From contig QYQC01000064.1 in the NCBI GenBank assembly GCA_007280315.1, forward strand, positions 1 to 41,155: a stretch of 41,155 bases of DNA, read 5' to 3'. Positions within the stretch are counted from its first letter, which is position 1, and each line of letters opens with the position of its first letter. The notes beneath the pieces were generated by a model that saw nothing but the letters and a program-made list of their open reading frames with translations, searched no databases and was not told the origin of the DNA. Origin of the DNA: Betaproteobacteria bacterium. GTDB lineage: Bacteria > Pseudomonadota > Gammaproteobacteria > Burkholderiales > SG8-39. Of the stretch, positions 2,704 through 14,624 are shown one piece after another. The translations under genes were made by a program, and so were the position numbers.

Positions 2704-3747
2704 ATGAAAAAAATCCTGATACTCGGCGTCAACGGCTTTATCGGCCACCACCTGTCCAAACGCATCATCGCCAAGACCGACTGGGAGGTCTATGGCATGG
2801 ACATGCAAACCGAACGCATCTCCGACCTGATCGAGGAAAAGCGCTTCCATTTCTTCGAAGGCGACATCACCATCAACAGGGAATGGATCGAATACCATGT
2901 ACGCAAGTGCGACACCGTGCTGCCATTGGTGGCGATCGCCACGCCGGCGACCTACGTAAAAGAGCCGCTGCGGGTGTTTGAACTCGATTTCGAAGCCAAT
3001 CTCCCGATCATCCGCTCCGCCGTCAAGTTCAAGAAACGCGTGGTATTCCCCTCGACCTCGGAAGTCTATGGCATGTGCCGCGACGACGAATTCGACTCGG
3101 AGACCTCCGAACTGGTGCTTGGACCGATCAACAAACCGCGCTGGATCTACTCCTGCGCCAAGCAGCTGATGGACCGGGTGATCCACGCCTACGGCATGGA
3201 GCAAGGCCTCGACTACACGCTGTTCCGGCCGTTCAACTGGATCGGCGCGGGCCTCGACTCGATCAATACCGCCAAGGAAGGCAGCTCGCGCGTGATCACC
3301 CAGTTCCTCGGCCACATCGTGCGCGGCGAGAACATCAAGCTGGTGGATGGAGGCGGCCAGAAACGGGCGTTCACTTACATCGATGACGGCATCGACGCGC
3401 TGCTGAAAATCATCGACAATCCGGCGGGCATCGCGAGCGGGAAGATCTACAACATCGGCAATCCGAAAAACAACTACTCCGTCAGGGAACTCGCGGAAAT
3501 GATGCTGGCACTGGCGCTCGAATACCCGGAATACCGCAGCCACGCAAAGAAGGTGAAATTAATCAGGACCAGCTCGGCGCAGTATTACGGCAAGGGCTAC
3601 CAGGACGTGCAGAATCGCGTGCCGAAAATCACCAATACCTGCAAAGACCTCGCGTGGAAGCCCAAGGTCGATATGCAGCAGGCAATGAAGCATATATTCG
3701 ACTTCTATCGCGGCCACGTCGCCGAAGCACGCAATCTCGTAGATTGA
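2704..3747 (+). CDS. UDP-glucuronate decarboxylase / UDP-4-keto-pentose synthase (stand-alone ArnA C-terminal domain)
   Basis: ATG at 2704 (MKKILILGVNGFIG), PLVAIATP, FPSTSEVYG, YxxxK, RPFNWIG. Confidence 0.9.
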   Translation: MKKILILGVNGFIGHHLSKRIIAKTDWEVYGMDMQTERISDLIEEKRFHFFEGDITINREWIEYHVRKCDTVLPLVAIATPATYVKEPLRVFELDFEANLPIIRSAVKFKKRVVFPSTSEVYGMCRDDEFDSETSELVLGPINKPRWIYSCAKQLMDRVIHAYGMEQGLDYTLFRPFNWIGAGLDSINTAKEGSSRVITQFLGHIVRGENIKLVDGGGQKRAFTYIDDGIDALLKIIDNPAGIASGKIYNIGNPKNNYSVRELAEMMLALALEYPEYRSHAKKVKLIRTSSAQYYGKGYQDVQNRVPKITNTCKDLAWKPKVDMQQAMKHIFDFYRGHVAEARNLVD

Positions 3748-3777
3748 AGCAGATCGAATTTGAAATAAGCGGCTTGG

Positions 3778-4109
3778 TTGGGCTTTTACCCAAGATGGTC
3801 GATCGTGCGCGGATGGCCTTTCATCCGTGCACGATCGACCATCCGCGCGGACGGGCCGCCGTCCGCGCAAGTCCGGGCGCTACAGTTCGATGTCTCGTCC
3901 GATATCTACCGATATCGTCAAATATCCATTGCGCGCTCCGCGCGCCAACCGTGTTTTCCGCGCGGATGAAAAGCACATCCGCACGGAAAACACGGTTATT
4001 GTTAACACCAAACATGCCTTGGGGATTTACCCAAGATCGTCGATCGTACACGGATGGCCTTTCATCCGTGCACGATCGACCATCCGCGCGGACGGGCCGC
4101 CGTCCGCGC
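3778..4109 (+). repeat. Compound palindromic repeat locus 1 (B-A-B), BIME/REPIN-like
   Basis: 91-bp direct repeat 3778-3868 / 4019-4109 (5 mismatches), each with a 22-bp stem and a 10-bp GCGCGGACGG-N4-CCGTCCGCGC hairpin; A unit with 22-bp stem 3947-3997 between them. Confidence 0.9.
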
Positions 4110-4133
4110 CAGGTCGAATAGACACCATTTCCC

Positions 4134-5042
4134 GTGAAACTGGCCCTCAAAATCGACGTCGACACCTATCGCGGCACGCGCGAGGGCGTACCGCGCCTGA
4201 TAGAAGTCCTGAAGAAGCACGAAGCCGGCGCAACGTTTCTATTCAGCCTGGGGCCGGACCACACCGGGCGCGCAATCAAGCGCGCGTTCCGACCTGGCTT
4301 TATGAAGAAGGTGTCCCGCACCTCGGTGCTGGAGCACTACGGCCTCAAGACCCTGCTCTACGGGACGCTGCTCCCCGGGCCCGACATCGGCAAAGGCTGT
4401 GCCGAGATTCTGCGCGGCACGCGCGACGCGGGATTTGAGGTGGGCATCCATACCTGGGATCACGTGAAATGGCAGGATCACGTTGTGGCGCAAGGCGAGC
4501 GCTGGACCGGCGAAGAAATGGGTGCGGCATACCTGCGCTTCTCCGAGGTTTTCGGCGAGCCGGCGCGTATCCATGGCGCAGCCGGCTGGCAGATGAACGT
4601 TCACGCGATGCGTCTGACCCAGCGCCTGGGATTCGATTATTGCTCGGACACTCGCGGCCGCTTCCCCTTCCTCCCCGTCATCCGCGGTGAAATCGTCACC
4701 TGTCCGCAACTGCCGACCACCCTGCCCACGCTGGATGAATTGATCGGCGTGGATGGACTGACCGCAAACAATGTAGCCGCGCACTTGCTCAAATTCTCGG
4801 AAGATCCACTGCCCACCGGCCATGTCTACACCCTGCATGCAGAACTGGAGGGCATGAAACTGCTGCCGGTTTTTGAGTCGCTGCTGATCGGGTGGAAGGC
4901 CATGGGCTTCGAGCTCGTGCCCACGCGCGAGTTGTTCGCCACACTCAGACCGCAGAGCCTGCCCCGGCATGAGCTGGTCATGGGCGAAATTCCCGGCAGA
5001 TCGGGTGCGCTCGCACTGCAAGGAAAAGAGTTTCTCGCGTGA
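4134..5042 (+). CDS. arnD: Polysaccharide deacetylase family, ArnD-like deformylase
   Basis: GTG start; LKIDVDTYRGTREGVP, FLFSLGPDHTGR, HTWDH, PTTLPTLDE, YTLHAELEG. Confidence 0.88.
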   Translation: MKLALKIDVDTYRGTREGVPRLIEVLKKHEAGATFLFSLGPDHTGRAIKRAFRPGFMKKVSRTSVLEHYGLKTLLYGTLLPGPDIGKGCAEILRGTRDAGFEVGIHTWDHVKWQDHVVAQGERWTGEEMGAAYLRFSEVFGEPARIHGAAGWQMNVHAMRLTQRLGFDYCSDTRGRFPFLPVIRGEIVTCPQLPTTLPTLDELIGVDGLTANNVAAHLLKFSEDPLPTGHVYTLHAELEGMKLLPVFESLLIGWKAMGFELVPTRELFATLRPQSLPRHELVMGEIPGRSGALALQGKEFLA

Positions 5043-5917
5043 GCACGTTCTTTCCCGGATTCGCGCGCAGGCAGATTGCCGTAAGCGGGGCCATGATCAA
5101 CCTGGTGCATGGCGGACAAGGTCCGGCGCTGCTATTACTTCACGGCTATCCGCAAACACACTGCATCTGGCATGGAATCGCGCCGCGCCTGGCACAGCGA
5201 TTCACAGTCGTGGCAACCGACCTGCGCGGTTACGGCGATTCGTCCAAGCCGGCCGGATTGCCCGATCACAGCAATTACTCCAAGCGCGCCATGGCCCTGG
5301 ATCAGGTCGAGGTCATGCAGGCCTTGGGCTACCCCGAGTTCCACCTGGTCGGTCACGATCGCGGCGCGCGCGTCGCGCACCGGCTCGCGCTGGATCATCC
5401 GGCGCGCGTGAAGAACCTCGCCGTGTTGGACATTTGCCCGACCGGGACAATGTATACGCGCACCGATCGCGCTTTCGCCAAGGCCTATTTCCACTGGTTC
5501 TTTTTGATACAGCCGGCACCTTTCCCGGAAACACTGATCGGCGCCGATCCGGAATTCTTCATCAAGTACCAGATGGGACGGCGCCACGGCGGCCTGGACG
5601 TGTTCGCTCCCGACGCGATGGCCGAATACTTGCGCTGTTTTTCTGACCCCGCCACTATCCACGCCAGCTGCGAAGACTATCGCGCGGCCGAGTCCATCGA
5701 TCTAGAACACGATGCCGTCGACAACTCGAAAAAAATAGAGTGTCCACTACTCGCATTGTGGGGAAGACATGGGGTTGTCGAACAGCAGTTCGATTGCCTC
5801 TCAGACTGGCGCGCTGTCGCGCGCGACGTGCGCGGCGCGGCTCTGGAATGCGGCCACTATCTGCCAGAGGAGCAGCCCGACGAAGTCGCGCGGCAGCTGG
5901 AACATTTTCTTCTTTGA
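5039..5917 (+). CDS. Alpha/beta hydrolase, haloacetate/fluoroacetate dehalogenase-like
   Basis: HGYPQ oxyanion motif, GHDRGARV nucleophile elbow, YFHW, EDYRA, CGHY. Confidence 0.85.
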   Translation: MSTFFPGFARRQIAVSGAMINLVHGGQGPALLLLHGYPQTHCIWHGIAPRLAQRFTVVATDLRGYGDSSKPAGLPDHSNYSKRAMALDQVEVMQALGYPEFHLVGHDRGARVAHRLALDHPARVKNLAVLDICPTGTMYTRTDRAFAKAYFHWFFLIQPAPFPETLIGADPEFFIKYQMGRRHGGLDVFAPDAMAEYLRCFSDPATIHASCEDYRAAESIDLEHDAVDNSKKIECPLLALWGRHGVVEQQFDCLSDWRAVARDVRGAALECGHYLPEEQPDEVARQLEHFLL

Positions 5918-6011
5918 TGTATTGACGACAAGCACTTACGAACAAATTTGCGTTCCCACCCCGATTCGTCAACAATATTGCCAGACCATCACCAACGGGT
6001 CTGCACATTCA

Positions 6012-6473
6012 ATGGATAAAAAAGAGAAAGTTGGCGATTTTTCACTGCCTTGTACCGGCGACAAACCGTTTCAGCTGTCCGCGGTCGGCGACCAGTTCCT
6101 GGTGCTGTATTTCTATCCCAAGGACAACACCCCCGGTTGCACTGCCGAGAGCGTCCAGTTTCGCGACTTGCACCGGGAATTCAGCGCGCTCGGCTGCGGC
6201 GTCTACGGCATTTCGCGCGACAGTCTCAAATCGCATGAAGGCTTCAAGGCGAAACACGGTCTGCCATTTGATCTGCTTGCCGACACGGACGAGCTGGCAT
6301 GCGGCATGTTCAAGGTGATCAAAATGAAGAATCTGTATGGCAAGAAAGTACGCGGCATCGAGCGCAGCACCTTCGTCCTCGACCGCGAACGGCTGATTCG
6401 GCGCGAATGGCGCGGCGTCAAAGTTCCAGGTCATGTGCAGGAGGTATGCGATTTTGTTAAAACCCTCAAATGA
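6012..6473 (+). CDS. bcp: Peroxiredoxin, Bcp/PrxQ subfamily
   Basis: VLYFYPKDNTPGCT, GISRD, GIERSTF; ATG at 6012 chosen over the upstream in-frame extension. Confidence 0.9.
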   Translation: MDKKEKVGDFSLPCTGDKPFQLSAVGDQFLVLYFYPKDNTPGCTAESVQFRDLHREFSALGCGVYGISRDSLKSHEGFKAKHGLPFDLLADTDELACGMFKVIKMKNLYGKKVRGIERSTFVLDRERLIRREWRGVKVPGHVQEVCDFVKTLK

Positions 6474-6510
6474 CGGTGCGGCATTCGACGAAAATGCCGA
6501 CCAACCACCC

Positions 6511-7929
6511 ATGGCCAAACGCAAGTCCCGCCCCGAATCCGGAAAATCGCTGACCAAACTGTTCGTGCTCGACACCAACGTGTTGATGCACGATCCCACC
6601 AGTCTGTTCCGCTTCGAGGAACACGACCTGTTCCTGCCGATCATGACGCTGGAGGAACTCGACAGCAACAAGAAAGGACTGTCCGAAGTCGCGCGCAACG
6701 CGCGCCAGGCGAGCCGCTACCTCGACGATATCGTAAGCAATGTTGCCGGCAAGATCGACGCCGGCATCAAACTGCAGCGTCATGCCGCGGATCCCGCGAC
6801 GGGCAAGCTGTTCCTTCAGACGCAGGCGCTGGACAGTTCGCTGCCCGAGTCTCTCGCACTGGGCAAAGCCGACAATCACATCATCGGCGTGGTGATGGCA
6901 CTGCAGCGGCAACAGCCGCAGCGGCAGGTCATCCTGGTGTCCAAGGACATCAACATGCGCATCAAGGCACGTGCGCTCGGCCTGCCCGCTGAAGACTACT
7001 TTAATGACAAGGTGCTGGAGGACATCGATCTGCTCTACACCGGCGTGCGCAAGCTACCGGCAGACTTCTGGGACCAGCATGCCAAGGATATGGAATCGTG
7101 GAAGAAAGACGGACACACCTACTACCGCGTCACCGGGCCGTTATGTCGGGAATTGCTGGTAAACGAATTCGTCTATCAGGAAGACGAGCGACCGCTGCAC
7201 GCGATCGTGCGCGAGCGATCCGATCAAACCGCATTGCTGGAAACGATCAAGGATTACACCCACCAGAAAAACAGCGTGTGGGGTATCACGGCGCGCAACC
7301 GCGAGCAGAATTTCGCGCTAAACCTGCTGATGAATCCGGACGTCGATTTCATCACCCTGCTCGGCCAGGCCGGCACCGGCAAAACCCTGCTTACACTCGC
7401 GGCCGGTCTGATGCAGACGCTGGAGAGCAAGGTGTTTTCTGAAATCATCATTACCCGCGTCACCGTGCCGGTGGGCGAAGACATCGGTTTTCTCCCCGGT
7501 ACCGAAGAAGAGAAAATGAACCCCTGGATGGGCGCACTGGAGGACAACCTCGAAGTGCTCAACAAGTCCGACGAGGAAGGCGGCGAATGGGGACGCGCCG
7601 CGACGCGTGATCTGATCAGATCGCGAATCAAGGTGAAGTCGCTCAACTTCATGCGCGGCCGAACCTTTCTCAACAAGTACCTGATCATCGACGAGGCGCA
7701 GAATCTCACGCCCAAGCAGATGCGCACGCTGATCACCCGCGCAGGCCCCGGCACCAAGGTCGTGTGTCTGGGCAATATCGCGCAGATCGACACGCCCTAC
7801 CTCACCGAAGGTTCATCCGGCCTGACCTATGTCGTCGATCGCTTCAAGGGCTGGGAGCACGGCGGTCACGTAACGCTGCAGCGCGGCGAGCGCTCGCGGC
7901 TGGCGGACCATGCGGCGGAAGTGCTGTAG
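6511..7929 (+). CDS. PIN-domain PhoH-family ATPase (PhoH2-type)
   Basis: N-terminal PIN (FVLDTNVLMHD, LVSKDINMRIKA), Walker A GQAGTGKT, GFLPGTEEEK, MRGRT, IIDEAQNLT. Confidence 0.92.
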   Translation: MAKRKSRPESGKSLTKLFVLDTNVLMHDPTSLFRFEEHDLFLPIMTLEELDSNKKGLSEVARNARQASRYLDDIVSNVAGKIDAGIKLQRHAADPATGKLFLQTQALDSSLPESLALGKADNHIIGVVMALQRQQPQRQVILVSKDINMRIKARALGLPAEDYFNDKVLEDIDLLYTGVRKLPADFWDQHAKDMESWKKDGHTYYRVTGPLCRELLVNEFVYQEDERPLHAIVRERSDQTALLETIKDYTHQKNSVWGITARNREQNFALNLLMNPDVDFITLLGQAGTGKTLLTLAAGLMQTLESKVFSEIIITRVTVPVGEDIGFLPGTEEEKMNPWMGALEDNLEVLNKSDEEGGEWGRAATRDLIRSRIKVKSLNFMRGRTFLNKYLIIDEAQNLTPKQMRTLITRAGPGTKVVCLGNIAQIDTPYLTEGSSGLTYVVDRFKGWEHGGHVTLQRGERSRLADHAAEVL

Positions 7930-8154
7930 CGATCCTGCTGGCAACGAATTTGCGCGCTGCGCGCGCCAACCGTGTTTTTGGTACGGATGAAAAGCACATC
8001 CGTACCAAAAACACGGTTATGGATAAAAGCAAGAGCCGTTTCGGGTTTGCTTTTTTCCAAGATCGCCGATTGCGCGCGGACAGGTTCATCGTCCGCGCAC
8101 AATCGGTGATCCGCGCGGACGGGGCGCCGTCCGCGCAAGCAATGGCGCTACAGC
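7923..8154 (+). repeat. Compound palindromic repeat locus 2 (A-B) with 9-bp terminal inverted repeats
   Basis: Perfect 22-bp A stem 7968-8018, B stem 8061-8111, small hairpin 8113-8136; GCTGTAGCG (7923-7931) and CGCTACAGC (8146-8154). Confidence 0.88.
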
Positions 8155-9543
8155 TCAATACCGACCCGGATCTGCATAATTTTCAAAGCGCGTGTATTCG
8201 CCGATGAAGGTCAGGTTGAGCATGCCGATGGGTCCGTTGCGCTGCTTGCCGATGATGATTTCGGCCTTGCCTTTGTCGGCGGACTCGGGATTGTAGACTT
8301 CGTCGCGGTAGATGAACAGGATCACGTCGGCATCCTGCTCGATCGCACCCGACTCGCGCAGATCGGACATCACCGGACGTTTGTTCGGCCGCTGCTCCAG
8401 CCCGCGATTCAGCTGTGACAGCGCCACCACCGGTACCTTCAGCTCTTTCGCCAGCGCCTTGAGCGAGCGCGAAATCTCCGAAATCTCGGTGGCGCGATTC
8501 TCGCCGGACGAAGTCGATGACATCAGCTGAAGATAATCGACCACCACCAGGCCGAGGCCGTCGTACTGGCGGTGCATGCGGCGCGCGCGCGCGCGCAACT
8601 CGAGGCAGTTCAACGCCGGCGTCTCGTCGATATGAATCGGCGCGTCGTGTACCTTGCCCACTGCGTCGGTAAGACGGCTCCAGTCCTCGTCGGTCAGGCG
8701 CCCGGTGCGCAGTTTCATCTGGTCCAGCCGCCCGACGGAACCGAGCATGCGCATCGCGAGCTGGGCGCCGCCCATTTCCATGCTGAACACCGCCACCGGC
8801 AGGCGGTCGTTCACCGCTACGTGCTCCGCGATATTGAGCGCGAACGCAGTCTTGCCCATGCTCGGACGCCCGGCGACGATGATCAGGTCGCCTTGCTGCA
8901 GTCCCGATGTTTTCTGATCCAGGTCGTTAAAGCCGGTGGCAATGCCGGTGATGTCCGACGGATTGTCGCGGTGATAGAGCATGTCGATGCGCTCCATCAC
9001 CTGCGCCAGAATCGGCTGTATCTCGACCAGTCCCTGGTGCCCGCGCGCGCCGGCCTCGGCGATTTCGAACACGCGCGATTCGGCTTCATCGAGCAGCTTG
9101 GCGACTTCCTTGCCCATCGGGTTCAACGCGGAGTCGGCGATGCCGGTGCCCACCTCGATCAACCGTCTCTGGATCGCGCGCTCACGCACGATTTCGGCGT
9201 AACGCCGGATGTTGTGCGCCGAGGGCGTGTTCTGCGCCAGCGCGCCGAGATAGGCAAGCCCGCCGGTCTTGTCCTTGTCCTCGCTCTGCTCTATCGATTC
9301 GAACACCGTGACCATGTCGGCTGGACGGTTTCTCTCCATCAGCTTGCCGATGTGCCGATAGATGCGACGATGGTCGTCGCGGTAGAAATTGCTTTCCGCG
9401 AGGATATCGGCGACGCGCTCCCACGCCTGGTTGTCGAGCAGCAAACCGCCCAGCACCGATTGCTCCGCTTCGATCGAATGCGGCGGCACCCTCAGTTGCA
9501 CCAACTGCGGGTCGTTCACGATTTGGGGGGTTGCCTGGGCCAT
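8155..9543 (-). CDS. dnaB: Replicative DNA helicase
   Basis: PPHSIEAEQSVLGGLL, AGRPSMGKT, VVVDYLQL, SDLRESGAIEQDAD, KQRNGP. Confidence 0.97.
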   Translation of the reverse strand: MAQATPQIVNDPQLVQLRVPPHSIEAEQSVLGGLLLDNQAWERVADILAESNFYRDDHRRIYRHIGKLMERNRPADMVTVFESIEQSEDKDKTGGLAYLGALAQNTPSAHNIRRYAEIVRERAIQRRLIEVGTGIADSALNPMGKEVAKLLDEAESRVFEIAEAGARGHQGLVEIQPILAQVMERIDMLYHRDNPSDITGIATGFNDLDQKTSGLQQGDLIIVAGRPSMGKTAFALNIAEHVAVNDRLPVAVFSMEMGGAQLAMRMLGSVGRLDQMKLRTGRLTDEDWSRLTDAVGKVHDAPIHIDETPALNCLELRARARRMHRQYDGLGLVVVDYLQLMSSTSSGENRATEISEISRSLKALAKELKVPVVALSQLNRGLEQRPNKRPVMSDLRESGAIEQDADVILFIYRDEVYNPESADKGKAEIIIGKQRNGPIGMLNLTFIGEYTRFENYADPGRY

Positions 9544-9583
9544 AGAGCGCGCTTTGCTGGAGTGCAAATTCTACTCCAAGATG

Positions 9584-9806
9584 TTCCTGCTTTTATTCAT
9601 AACTGTGTTTACTGCACAGATGCTTCTTATCCGTGCAGTAAACACAGTCGGTGCGCGGAGCGCGCAATGGCCGCAGGGCGAGATGGGCGCGCATAGCCGC
9701 ATAGGTCGAACCACGGCCTAAGAACTGGCGCGGACGGCGTCCCGTCCGCGCGTAATCGGCGATCTTGAATAAGAAAAGGCCGGATTACCGGCCTTTTCTT
9801 ATCAAG
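9584..9806 (-). repeat. Compound palindromic repeat locus 3 (truncated B, then A; minus orientation)
   Basis: A stem 9601-9649 with the reverse complement of TTGCGCGCTCCGCGCACC at 9650-9667; small B hairpin 9728-9751; 9754-9767 is the reverse complement of 8058-8071. Confidence 0.85.
9769..9802 (-). terminator. Intrinsic terminator after rplI, possibly bidirectional
   Basis: ATAAGAAAAGGCCGG-ATTA-CCGGCCTTTTCTTAT perfect inverted repeat with U-rich tails on both strands, 14 bp from the rplI stop. Confidence 0.8.
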
Positions 9807-14537: not shown

Positions 14538-14624
14538 GCCGAGGTGGCGGAATTGGTAGACGCACATGGTTCAGGTCCATGCGGTGGCAACACTGTGGGG
14601 GTTCGAGTCCCTTCCTCGGCACCA
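14538..14624 (+). tRNA. tRNA-Leu(CAG)
   Basis: Acceptor GCCGAGG/CCTCGGC, anticodon arm CATGG-TTCAGGT-CCATG, long variable arm, TTCGAGT T-loop, encoded CCA. Confidence 0.96.

Follow-up and report, generated by a model that had tools for sequence, protein, structure and literature searches.

Correia/NEMIS, ERIC, and BOX elements are intergenic elements of 100-200 nt that lie near genes, have strong predicted folds, and occur in modular forms. In E. coli, BIME-2 (bacterial interspersed mosaic element) arrays combine two diverged palindromic REP/PU unit types (Y and Z2) that alternate in inverted orientation, with two alternating kinds of spacer and fixed spacer motifs, in arrays of variable length plus single units that are extragenic and sit at gene 3' ends (features taken in part from PMC2817692 and PMC8266576). 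The REPINs of the REPIN-RAYT systems of Pseudomonas, Neisseria, and E. coli are inverted doublets of REP-like units that persist for long within a lineage and form tandem clusters with carried flanks (PMC3116915, in the legend of Fig. S7). Compensatory changes are common in their hairpins, according to Bertels & Rainey 2011 (PMC3116915), and their loss upon loss of the RAYT is described in a preprint (10.1101/2021.07.10.451892).

The window analyzed here, a stretch of 41,155 nt, contains members of a BIME/REPIN-like family that resembles E. coli mosaic REP arrays, and in which long stems change in matched pairs and short blocks are fixed. Its composite form measures ~183 nt and consists, in order, of a GC hairpin (h1), a 22-bp hairpin (H2), a linker, a 21-bp hairpin (H3), and a second GC hairpin (h4). 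The basic unit is REP-like, namely a 21-22-bp hairpin plus a GC hairpin of 6-10 bp. Unit A (h1+H2) aligns with the reverse complement of unit B+C (H3+h4), with about 14 of 22 stem positions common to H2 and the reverse complement of H3 when read by eye, and minus-strand matches to our covariance model of the composite (R1) fall on identical loci; the two units share a single design, one being inverted relative to the other. They alternate in inverted orientation, separated in turn by a linker of ~45 nt and a spacer (S) of ~57 nt. Tandem arrays have a period of 239-247 nt in the order A-linker-(B+C)-S-A (contigs C71, C73, C123, and C249, and window positions 3778-4112), and the units are also found singly and as B+C-A. 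Collapse of H3 onto h4 is recurrent and takes place at a common CG(C/T)GCGGAC word.

All units named in the original prediction sit in the window sequence where it had placed them. The region holds seven units, three A and four B+C, one of the latter collapsed (Table 1), and four copies of the small GC hairpin are present. All are intergenic, as had been proposed, in the epimerase/deacetylase, PIN-PhoH/DnaB, and DnaB/L9 gaps, whose flanking genes were confirmed with Pfam. The stem of the A unit at 3947-3997 is paired save for one C.A mismatch, that at 7968-8018 has perfect arms of 22 nt, and that at 9601-9649 is a minus-strand hairpin whose pairing includes two G.T pairs; the B units are those at 3794-3843, 4035-4084, and 8061-8111. 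The composite at 3929..4112 scored 187.8 bits against R1 (model positions 1-183) and that at 7950..8139 scored 196.1 bits. The latter has an orthologous copy in five other species and sharp repeat edges at 7950 and 8139 in metagenome contigs, and positions 7940-8145 gave a DNA fold of -85.8 kcal/mol (z = -13.8), a value that none of 200 shuffles equaled. An nhmmer match to "BC without A" (3791-3868) lies inside the partial element, and the contigs of other copies diverge past its end at 3871. The spacer that follows makes a head-to-tail join of two units with a 241-nt period, and spacers of this type also separate the tandem copies on C71, C73, C123, and C249. The single A unit coincides with an nhmmer match to "A without BC" (9600-9667), and the neighboring B+C unit shares its type of collapse with C199 and with the phoH copy's orthologue in G014.

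Table 1. Repeat features in the window (positions count from its first nucleotide).
Feature	Position	Strand	Composition
Partial element	3778..3871	+	Right part of linker, H3 3794-3843, h4 3844-3869, terminal AAG
Array spacer S (~57 nt)	3872..3928	+	Recurrent ..GCGCTACAGTTCGA.. motif
Full composite	3929..4112	+	h1 3929-3946, H2 3947-3997, linker 3998-4034, H3 4035-4084, h4 4085-4109
Full composite, PIN-PhoH/DnaB gap	7950..8139	+	h1 7950-7967, H2 7968-8018, linker 8019-8060, H3 8061-8111, h4 8112-8136, AAG 8137-8139
Single A unit	9601..9667	-	h1 9650-9667, H2 9601-9649; immediately upstream of dnaB start
S-like spacer between collapsed B+C and A units	9668..9727	-	Only weak similarity to other spacers
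Collapsed B+C unit	9728..9772	-	H3 left arm (AAGATCGCCGATT) abuts h4 (9728-9752) directly

Genome-wide counts placed the window units in a large dispersed family. The assembly scanned (3.05 Mb, 89% complete) holds about 85 near-full units, about 42 A and about 43 B+C, distributed over 31 composites, 11 A units alone, and 12 B+C units alone. Strict motif counts were 40 and 37 in the genome, where a Markov control gave 3 and 0, and R1 gave 31 full-length matches of at least 168 bits. The suggestion that the family is undescribed held in an Rfam search, in which the family had no match: at the gathering score, the sole pass in the window was a tRNA at 14538-14621, and at E values up to 1 there were just sub-threshold matches to miRNA hairpin and sRNA models. 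We also considered and rejected an intrinsic terminator (a GC-rich stem followed by a T run) as the identity of the hairpins, since a consensus scan caught stem fragments and never the whole of H2 or H3 (12 sites compared with 5.5 +/- 3.0 in shuffles of the 6.2 kb).

In architecture, the family shares with BIME-2 the inverted alternation of two diverged units, the two alternating spacer kinds, the mix of arrays and single units, and the extragenic position at gene 3' ends. However, the BIME-2 unit is a single ~35-nt imperfect palindrome, whereas the present unit spans about 70-78 nt and comprises two hairpins (21-22-bp stem plus GC hairpin), lacks a fixed GTAG, has a hypervariable stem interior, and flanks no RAYT gene. 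BIMEs are also characterized by binding of IHF, DNA gyrase, or DNA polymerase I; on reading by eye, the linkers showed no IHF consensus. The likeness to REPINs lies in the inverted doublets, the compensatory changes that preserve the hairpins, the tandem clusters with carried flanks, the long persistence within a lineage, and, by our counts, repeat loss where genomes lack a Y1 gene. In contrast with REPINs, each unit is predicted to fold on itself with no pairing of one unit with the other, there is no master sequence accompanied by many identical copies, and the RAYT-like genes are not flanked by units and score under the NCBIfam cut-off. Correia/NEMIS, ERIC, and BOX elements are similar in size class, intergenic site beside genes, strong predicted fold, and modularity, but the present family has no TA or other target duplication and no long terminal inverted repeat, and its units are separable and reorderable.

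The proposed compound hairpin family was upheld, with significant covariation, in a larger alignment of copies. Among the 31 full copies, 96.8% of cells paired compared with 90.1% in shuffles, and two-sided changes were present in 127 cells compared with 26.1; none of 500 shuffles matched the observed value on any of five measures, and controls with slid partners gave 7-15 two-sided-change cells. Compensatory changes affected 25 of 59 pairs. Across 71 copies from four genomes, Watson-Crick pairs made up 95.2% of cells, and 56 (H2) and 57 (H3) of the 71 left arms were distinct haplotypes. In this four-genome set, 70 of 264 compensated cells (26%) were of transversion type, without a wobble intermediate. 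Outside two hot pairs, mismatches were G.T/A.C in the ratio 13/13 in H2 and 16/19 in H3. Stems kept a length of 21-22 bp, and the indels matched between the arms were a 2-bp insertion (C143) and 1-nt deletions (C71a and C102).

The prediction that the repeats are conserved in structure rather than sequence was half true. Windows within the stems do vary, but identity between copies is 93-97% in h1, h4, the feet of the hairpins, and their CGGAT/ATCCG tips; by block, pairwise identity was 0.93 in h1, 0.97 in the h4 stem, 0.82 in the stems, and 0.61 in the linker. On our reading, what is maintained is the fold together with short fixed blocks (GC hairpins, hairpin feet, and CGGAT...ATCCG tips), and the stem interior varies freely provided that pairing holds. 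The contrast drawn with classical REPs was also weaker than claimed, given that Bertels & Rainey 2011 (PMC3116915) had already reported such compensatory changes for REPIN hairpins.

The same pattern can be followed between sister species. The copy 3' of phoH is common to G000, G003, G004, G013, G014, and G016, all with a rare TTTTTGG variant, and its orthologues differ by four compensated pair changes, two of which are transversions; the G004 copy holds C.C and C.A intermediates. These orthologues bear one or other of two H3 tip types, which from their distribution may be a sign of conversion between copies. A second orthologous pair, on C181 of the source genome and C63 of G022, differs by one compensated transition and one compensated transversion, with 86.9% identity between the elements compared with 80-86% in the flanking genes and 62% in adjacent non-coding DNA.

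Full copies lie only downstream of genes. With gene calls from a crude ORF/GC3 caller, 28 of the 31 full copies were classifiable, 14 in convergent, 14 in co-directional, and none in divergent gaps, a tally that counts tandem copies twice; the baseline over 2140 gene junctions was 14% convergent, 71% co-directional, and 15% divergent (convergent excess, P = 7.5e-6; zero divergent, P = 0.012). Counted by unique intergenic regions, 12 of 26 were convergent. Overlap with a called gene never exceeded 30 nt in 28 of the 31 full copies.

Of 22 other genomes in the genus, 19 carried the family, 16 of them with 21-103 h4 sites, and it was present in 13 of 60 genomes of the taxonomic family (10 of 34 sampled genera). 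None of 149 genomes in a sample of the order, 146 of them from other families, had the repeat. It was found solely in Burkholderiales that are uncultured and represented by metagenome assemblies, and it is an undescribed intergenic repeat of uncultured freshwater members of one taxonomic family. Presence and absence vary among sister species, with about 70 copies in some and one or none in others.

A RAYT or IS200/IS605-type TnpA gene flanked by the units, which the original prediction had suggested looking for, was not found. The source genome (89% complete) had no PF01797 match and no Y1/RAYT gene, and 20 of 22 Y1 loci in relatives had no R1 match (E up to 0.1) inside about 1.5 kb. One of the exceptions adjoins an IS200 with its own, different end hairpins, and the end hairpins of IS200 copies in relatives are unrelated to the repeat. 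A different inverted repeat borders the RAYT-like gene of G008, and six other RAYT-like genes had no hairpins alongside; RAYT-like proteins scored 58.5 and 73 bits compared with a cut-off of 80 for the NCBIfam REP-associated tyrosine transposase. In statistics that take related genomes as independent, 14 of the 16 genomes of the genus that have at least 20 copies had PF01797 matches versus 2 of 6 with at most 4 (Fisher P = 0.025), and 12 of 13 family genomes that bear the element had a RAYT-like homologue versus 21 of 47 without the element (P = 0.003). The nearest RAYT homologues belong to the nearest relatives.

Mobility of the element was likewise not borne out. Pairwise identity between copies in the source genome averaged 0.745 with a maximum of 0.933, and no target-site duplication was present in 31 flank pairs. 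GTAG did not occur at a fixed distance in 31 upstream flanks, where some copies had it at 12 to more than 40 nt and many lacked it. Because near-identical copies are absent, recent transposition is not evident; with 0 of 465 copy pairs at least 95% identical and only 2 of 465 at least 90% identical, copying, if any, must be rare.

On balance, we think that the units are probably an old BIME-organized repeat family confined to one Burkholderiales family and mostly inherited vertically. The fold would be read on single-stranded nucleic acid, more likely ssDNA than one RNA strand because the mismatches are strand-symmetric, and the fixed blocks are predicted protein contact sites. Most present copies would be held in place by purifying selection plus short-tract conversion between copies. 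More tentatively, an unlinked single-copy HUH/Y1 (RAYT-like) enzyme may have seeded the family in trans and may still copy it occasionally. It is possible but unlikely that the repeats are instead host-selected RNA elements at transcript 3' ends, acting in either orientation as a 3' exonuclease barrier, RNase III site, or weak terminator/insulator, with copy number raised by rare duplication and stems covarying through selection on the RNA fold. Such roles are known from Correia elements in Neisseria and from certain REPs in E. coli, and the position of copies solely downstream of genes, half of them in convergent gaps, the pseudo-palindromic design that gives an identical hairpin order on both strands, the absence of young copies, the constant 21-22-bp stems with matched indels, and orthologous copies as conserved as coding DNA, with compensatory change, are all consistent with this. 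Yet selection on one RNA strand should favor G.U, whereas G.T equals A.C outside the two hot pairs; the transversion-type share (70 of 264 compensated cells), the failure of the terminator scan to match whole hairpins, and the family's absence from whole genomes of the genus, which an RNA role leaves unexplained, also argue against it.

Still more doubtful is a REPIN-like population kept in trans by a physically unlinked single-copy RAYT-like HUH enzyme that reads hairpin shape, the fixed tip, and the neighboring GC hairpin over stem sequence, with joint loss of repeats and enzyme from several lineages within one genus; if true, the REP-RAYT partnership would have a variant that is unlinked and read through structure, and "orphan" RAYT groups could possess dispersed clients. 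Palindrome mechanics, in which intrastrand template switching or mismatch correction in extruded hairpins keeps the arms alike with no selection on the fold, would account for the matched indels (C143, C71a, and C102), the 26% of transversion type, the strand-symmetric mismatches, and the recurrent collapse of H3 onto h4 at CG(C/T)GCGGAC. This we judge improbable, since it explains neither the 93-97% identity of h1, h4, feet, and tips compared with 61% in the linker, nor the greater conservation of orthologous copies than of flanking non-coding DNA, nor the absence from divergent intergenic regions, and orthologues retain mismatched intermediates. A classical MITE, derived by deletion from an IS with short terminal inverted repeats (TTGCGCG ... 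CGCGCAA) and moved by its DDE transposase, is very improbable: the composite ends are inverted copies of a 7-8-nt word, the edges at 7950 and 8139 are sharp, and presence differs among sister species, but 31 copies showed zero target-site duplications, lone A, lone B+C, and the B+C-A order are unexpected for a unit bounded by such repeats, and no longer element with such ends was found, the single 1.1-kb interval inspected holding ordinary genes.

Covarying palindromic repeats are already known in general, so the surprise is limited, and because the organisms are uncultured, tests would be heterologous or metagenomic. The family nevertheless offers a clean natural data set for asking why bacterial genomes retain hairpins of the REP/BIME type, since each hairpin exists in about 60 different stem sequences that all pair, and compensatory change is traceable between orthologous copies of sister species. 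Together with blocks held at 93-97% despite the lack of young copies, these features favor constraint on each copy in place over turnover of a selfish population, and the sister species with about 70 copies versus one or none are natural knock-outs.

The hairpin units that the original prediction placed within a 6-kb part of the window are real, and a check of the sequence and its repeats found each of them at its predicted place (see table). All are intergenic, as had been claimed, lying in the epimerase/deacetylase, PIN-PhoH/DnaB and DnaB/ribosomal protein L9 intervals, whose genes were confirmed with Pfam. The DNA fold of 7940-8145, around the copy next to PhoH, has an energy of -85.8 kcal/mol (z = -13.8). 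An Rfam search of the window returned tRNA only, scanning the window for consensus promoters gave no site, and a terminator scan rejected the family hairpins as consensus terminators. Metagenome contigs from four DNA runs yielded repeat boundaries, and none of them spanned an element reliably; for the skip of 3734-4146, one side is 26 letters long in one contig. Separately, just 3' of the L9 gene and immediately ahead of the collapsed B+C unit, the minus strand reads AAAAGGCCGGTAATCCGGCCTTTTCTT, a GC hairpin with a T run after it; this sequence looks like an intrinsic terminator of the L9 gene.

Features of the repeat family in the window, the source genome (G000) and relatives (L, extracted stretches of relatives' contigs)
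Feature	Location	Description
Unit A	3929-3997; 7950-8018; 9601-9667 (minus strand)	
h1	in unit A, beside the 22-bp hairpin H2	small GC hairpin, TTGCGCGC-loop-GCGCGCC
Unit B	3794-3843; 4035-4084; 8061-8111	21-bp hairpin H3
h4 (unit C)	directly after every B	10-bp GC hairpin, CGCGCGGACGG-loop-CCGTCCGCGC
Fourth h4	9728-9752	on collapsed B
Hairpin 3' of L9	9775-9800	GC hairpin, then T run
Copies with GCAAC..GCGATTCAAGTC downstream module	C123, C109, C39, C205, C45, C6, C9 of G000	
Two small inserted genes	L254:2200-2700 (G004:C244)	C52-equivalent site
Tandem hairpin repeat, another genus	L178:200-900 (G095:C41)	period about 240 nt
RAYT-like gene of G008	L058:1465-2196 (G008:C118)	243 aa
AAAGGGGTCAGAGACGAATT inverted copies and upstream repeated 32-nt palindrome	L058:1260-1403 and 2208-2530	
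IS200-like gene near a (B+C)-A pair	L055:1023-1200, 1300-2000 (G018:C409)	
CTGT-N8-ACAG palindrome	L063:1140-1170 (G019:C260)	

Across the source genome, a 3.05-Mb assembly of 260 contigs (62% G+C, 89% complete) to which the window belongs as contig C139, searches with strict h1 and h4 motifs gave 40 and 37 sites, compared with 3 and 0 for a Markov control. Counting copies genome-wide by profile searches gave near-full units of both kinds, 42 of A and 43 of B+C; as assemblies break at repeats, both figures are minima. Thirty-one A and B+C pairs were joined as an A-linker-(B+C) composite, 176-187 nt in length, while the 11 A and 12 B+C units that stood alone included several at contig ends. The 31 composites served to build a covariance model (R1), which recovered them at 168-205 bits and gave about 100-120 bits to full copies read on the opposite strand, and the A profile likewise matched the reverse complement of B+C. 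Thus, A and B+C share one design, in which a GC hairpin stands next to a long hairpin tipped with CGGAT...ATCCG, and they are diverged and mutually inverted versions of it. Composites were arranged in tandem at a 239-247-nt period on contigs C71, C73, C123 and C249 and at 3778-4112 of the window, separated by a spacer of ~57 nt that often carries ..ACAG(T/C)TCGAA.., and the commonest unit order in other genera was (B+C)-short spacer-A. The linker was rejected as a fifth conserved hairpin (mean z of -0.19, with z < -2 in just 7 of 71 linkers), although that of the copy at 7950 does fold, unlike the family in general. Several copies in the source genome also have a recurrent module, ..GCAAC..GCGATTCAAGTC..(C)GTATA(A/G).., on their 3' side, just upstream of the next gene, which could be one more mosaic motif or act as an outward promoter.

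The predicted covariation of the stems was significant, since none of 500 shuffles of the 31 copies matched any measure. In these copies, 96.8% of cells were paired compared with 90.1% after shuffling, and cells changed on both sides numbered 127 compared with 26; slid-partner controls gave 7-15 such cells. RNAalifold assigned 59 pairs to the same alignment, with compensatory changes in 25 of them. When 71 copies from four genomes were considered, Watson-Crick pairs made up 95.2% of cells, the left arms of H2 and H3 formed 56 and 57 distinct haplotypes, respectively, and the compensated cells comprised 194 of transition type and 70 of transversion type. Pairwise identity reached 0.93 in h1 and 0.97 in the h4 stem and fell to 0.82 in the long stems, 0.70 in their loops and 0.61 in the linker, and sequence variation was limited to windows within stems. 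Taken together, these identities and the restricted variation indicate that the fold is kept along with fixed blocks, so the proposal that structure is conserved rather than sequence holds for the fold and fails in its second half, short fixed sequence blocks being kept too.

Wobble pairs bear on which strand or molecule is read. G.T and A.C cells numbered 15 and 30 in H2 and 47 and 20 in H3 (P = 2e-4 for the H2/H3 contrast), but two pairs below the tip account for this contrast, and without them the counts were 13/13 in H2 and 16/19 in H3. The contrast reflects a single tip variant, CGTGCGGAT..ATCCGCGCG, which H3 carries as such and H2 in inverted form. Since the counts become nearly equal once the two pairs are removed, a general strand asymmetry was rejected, and the one-strand wobble preference expected for RNA is absent. 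Among 24 sequencing runs listed, no RNA run contained the region.

Compensatory change was also visible in place. The PhoH copy occupies the same site in six genomes (G000, G003, G004, G013, G014 and G016) with the same rare TTTTTGG stem variant. Among these orthologues, one pair changed from G-C to C-G, the intermediate C.C being present in G004, one from T-A to C-G (G013) and one from G-C to T-A (G014), and another was A-T versus G-C; in G014, H3 had collapsed onto h4. One H3 tip type was found in three species and a second in two, a pattern suggestive of conversion by other copies. Orthologous copies on C181 of G000 and C63 of G022 differed by two compensated changes, one a transition and one a transversion, and by a G.G mismatch, with an identity of 86.9% for the element compared with 80-86% for the flanking genes and 62% for neighbouring non-coding DNA.

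The family showed no sign of recent copying. Full copies in the source genome had a mean identity of 74.5% and a best pair of 93%, with at least 90% identity in 2 of 465 pairs and at least 95% in none of them, and copies from different species were as alike as copies within one genome. Comparison of filled and empty sites revealed differences in presence: the C52 site is empty in G013, the C181 site holds unit A only in G003, and the PhoH-DnaB interval has a short spacer without the element in G001 and a possible remnant in G002. Clean insertion boundaries could not be read, because PhoH-DnaB and C52 are rearranged between species. A small cysteine-rich minus-strand gene lies between PhoH and DnaB in G002, G003, G004 and G005 and is missing in G000 and G001. 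At the C52-equivalent site, G004 carries two small inserted genes whose translations, judged by eye, resemble a HicB/HicA pair.

Among named records, the nearest are genomes of "Burkholderiales bacterium" assembled from metagenomes, with DnaB identities of 96% and 91% to two such records and 74-75% to Nitrosomonadaceae. Searching relatives located the h4 pattern in 19 of 22 other species of the genus, at 21-103 sites in 16 genomes, 4 in G012 and 1 each in G006 and G020; G001, G002 and G009 had none. In a single-gene PhoH tree (459-1500 nt, FastTree) with weak deep nodes, element-poor genomes fell in at least three places, G020 (1 site), for example, being sister to G004 (68 sites). With R1, matches to the repeat were obtained in 13 of the 60 genomes sampled from the taxonomic family, representing 10 of 34 genera, and in none of 149 genomes of an order-wide sample, 146 of which came from other families. 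Some matches in other genera were diverged forms whose stem feet had changed in matched fashion. A different hairpin repeat, TCTCCCCTTTT(C/T)G(C/T)ACGG..CCGT(G/A)CGAAAAAGGGGAGA, forms a tandem array in another genus of the family and is matched weakly by R1, which suggests a possible wider superfamily of ACGG-tipped hairpins.

Gene context was assessed with our own crude gene caller (ORFs of at least 90 aa plus a GC3 signature; 82% of the genome coding). Of 31 full copies, 28 were classifiable, 14 as convergent, 14 as co-directional and none as divergent, compared with a baseline over 2140 junctions of 14%, 71% and 15%, respectively (P = 7.5e-6 for the convergent excess, P = 0.012 for the lack of divergent sites). 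Merging tandem copies left 12 of 26 convergent. The element was oriented with the genes at 10 of the 14 co-directional sites.

A RAYT (TnpA-REP) or IS200/IS605-type TnpA gene flanked by the units, as the original prediction proposed looking for, did not emerge. PF01797, the Pfam profile of the Y1 HUH transposase class, had no match in the 89% complete source assembly and matched in 16 of 22 genus genomes, where the genes were IS200-like or RAYT-like, the latter being about 200-250 aa with an HVH motif and scoring 58.5 and 73 bits on the NCBIfam REP-associated tyrosine transposase model (cut-off 80). No R1 match lay within about 1.5 kb at 20 of 22 loci. IS200 was rejected as mobiliser, since IS200-like genes end in their own unrelated hairpins; in G018, about 300 nt separate a (B+C)-A pair from one such gene, whose end hairpins are of the CCCCGG type, and this proximity may be chance or insertion next to repeats. 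The RAYT-like gene of G008 sits between inverted copies of AAAGGGGTCAGAGACGAATT, the classic REPtron arrangement, here with another repeat family, and this word is absent from the source genome; six other RAYT-like genes had no flanking hairpins. In G019, an SOS-box look-alike separates a RAYT-like gene at L063:1267-1866, which encodes ~200 aa, from a neighbour whose translation reads as ImuA-like. Y1 genes and the element co-occurred in the genus (14/16 versus 2/6, P = 0.025), as did RAYT-like genes and the element in the taxonomic family (12/13 versus 21/47, P = 0.003), with related genomes not independent in either comparison; both associations are positive and not independent of kinship. 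The pattern resembles the REPIN loss after RAYT loss described in a preprint (10.1101/2021.07.10.451892).

Neither the REPtron features of a flanked RAYT, a fixed GTAG and a master sequence nor the target-site duplication of MITEs was found at family copies. Word-based rather than sequence-based searching of the literature found no description of this family, whose organisms are uncultured, and compensatory change in REPIN hairpins is already in print (PMC3116915); we regard the observation as solid and its novelty as moderate. Both architecture and position agree with those of BIMEs, and the arrays follow the same logic as E. coli BIME-2 arrays, with two unit types alternating in orientation and two alternating spacers. 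The family works like a BIME or REPIN system.
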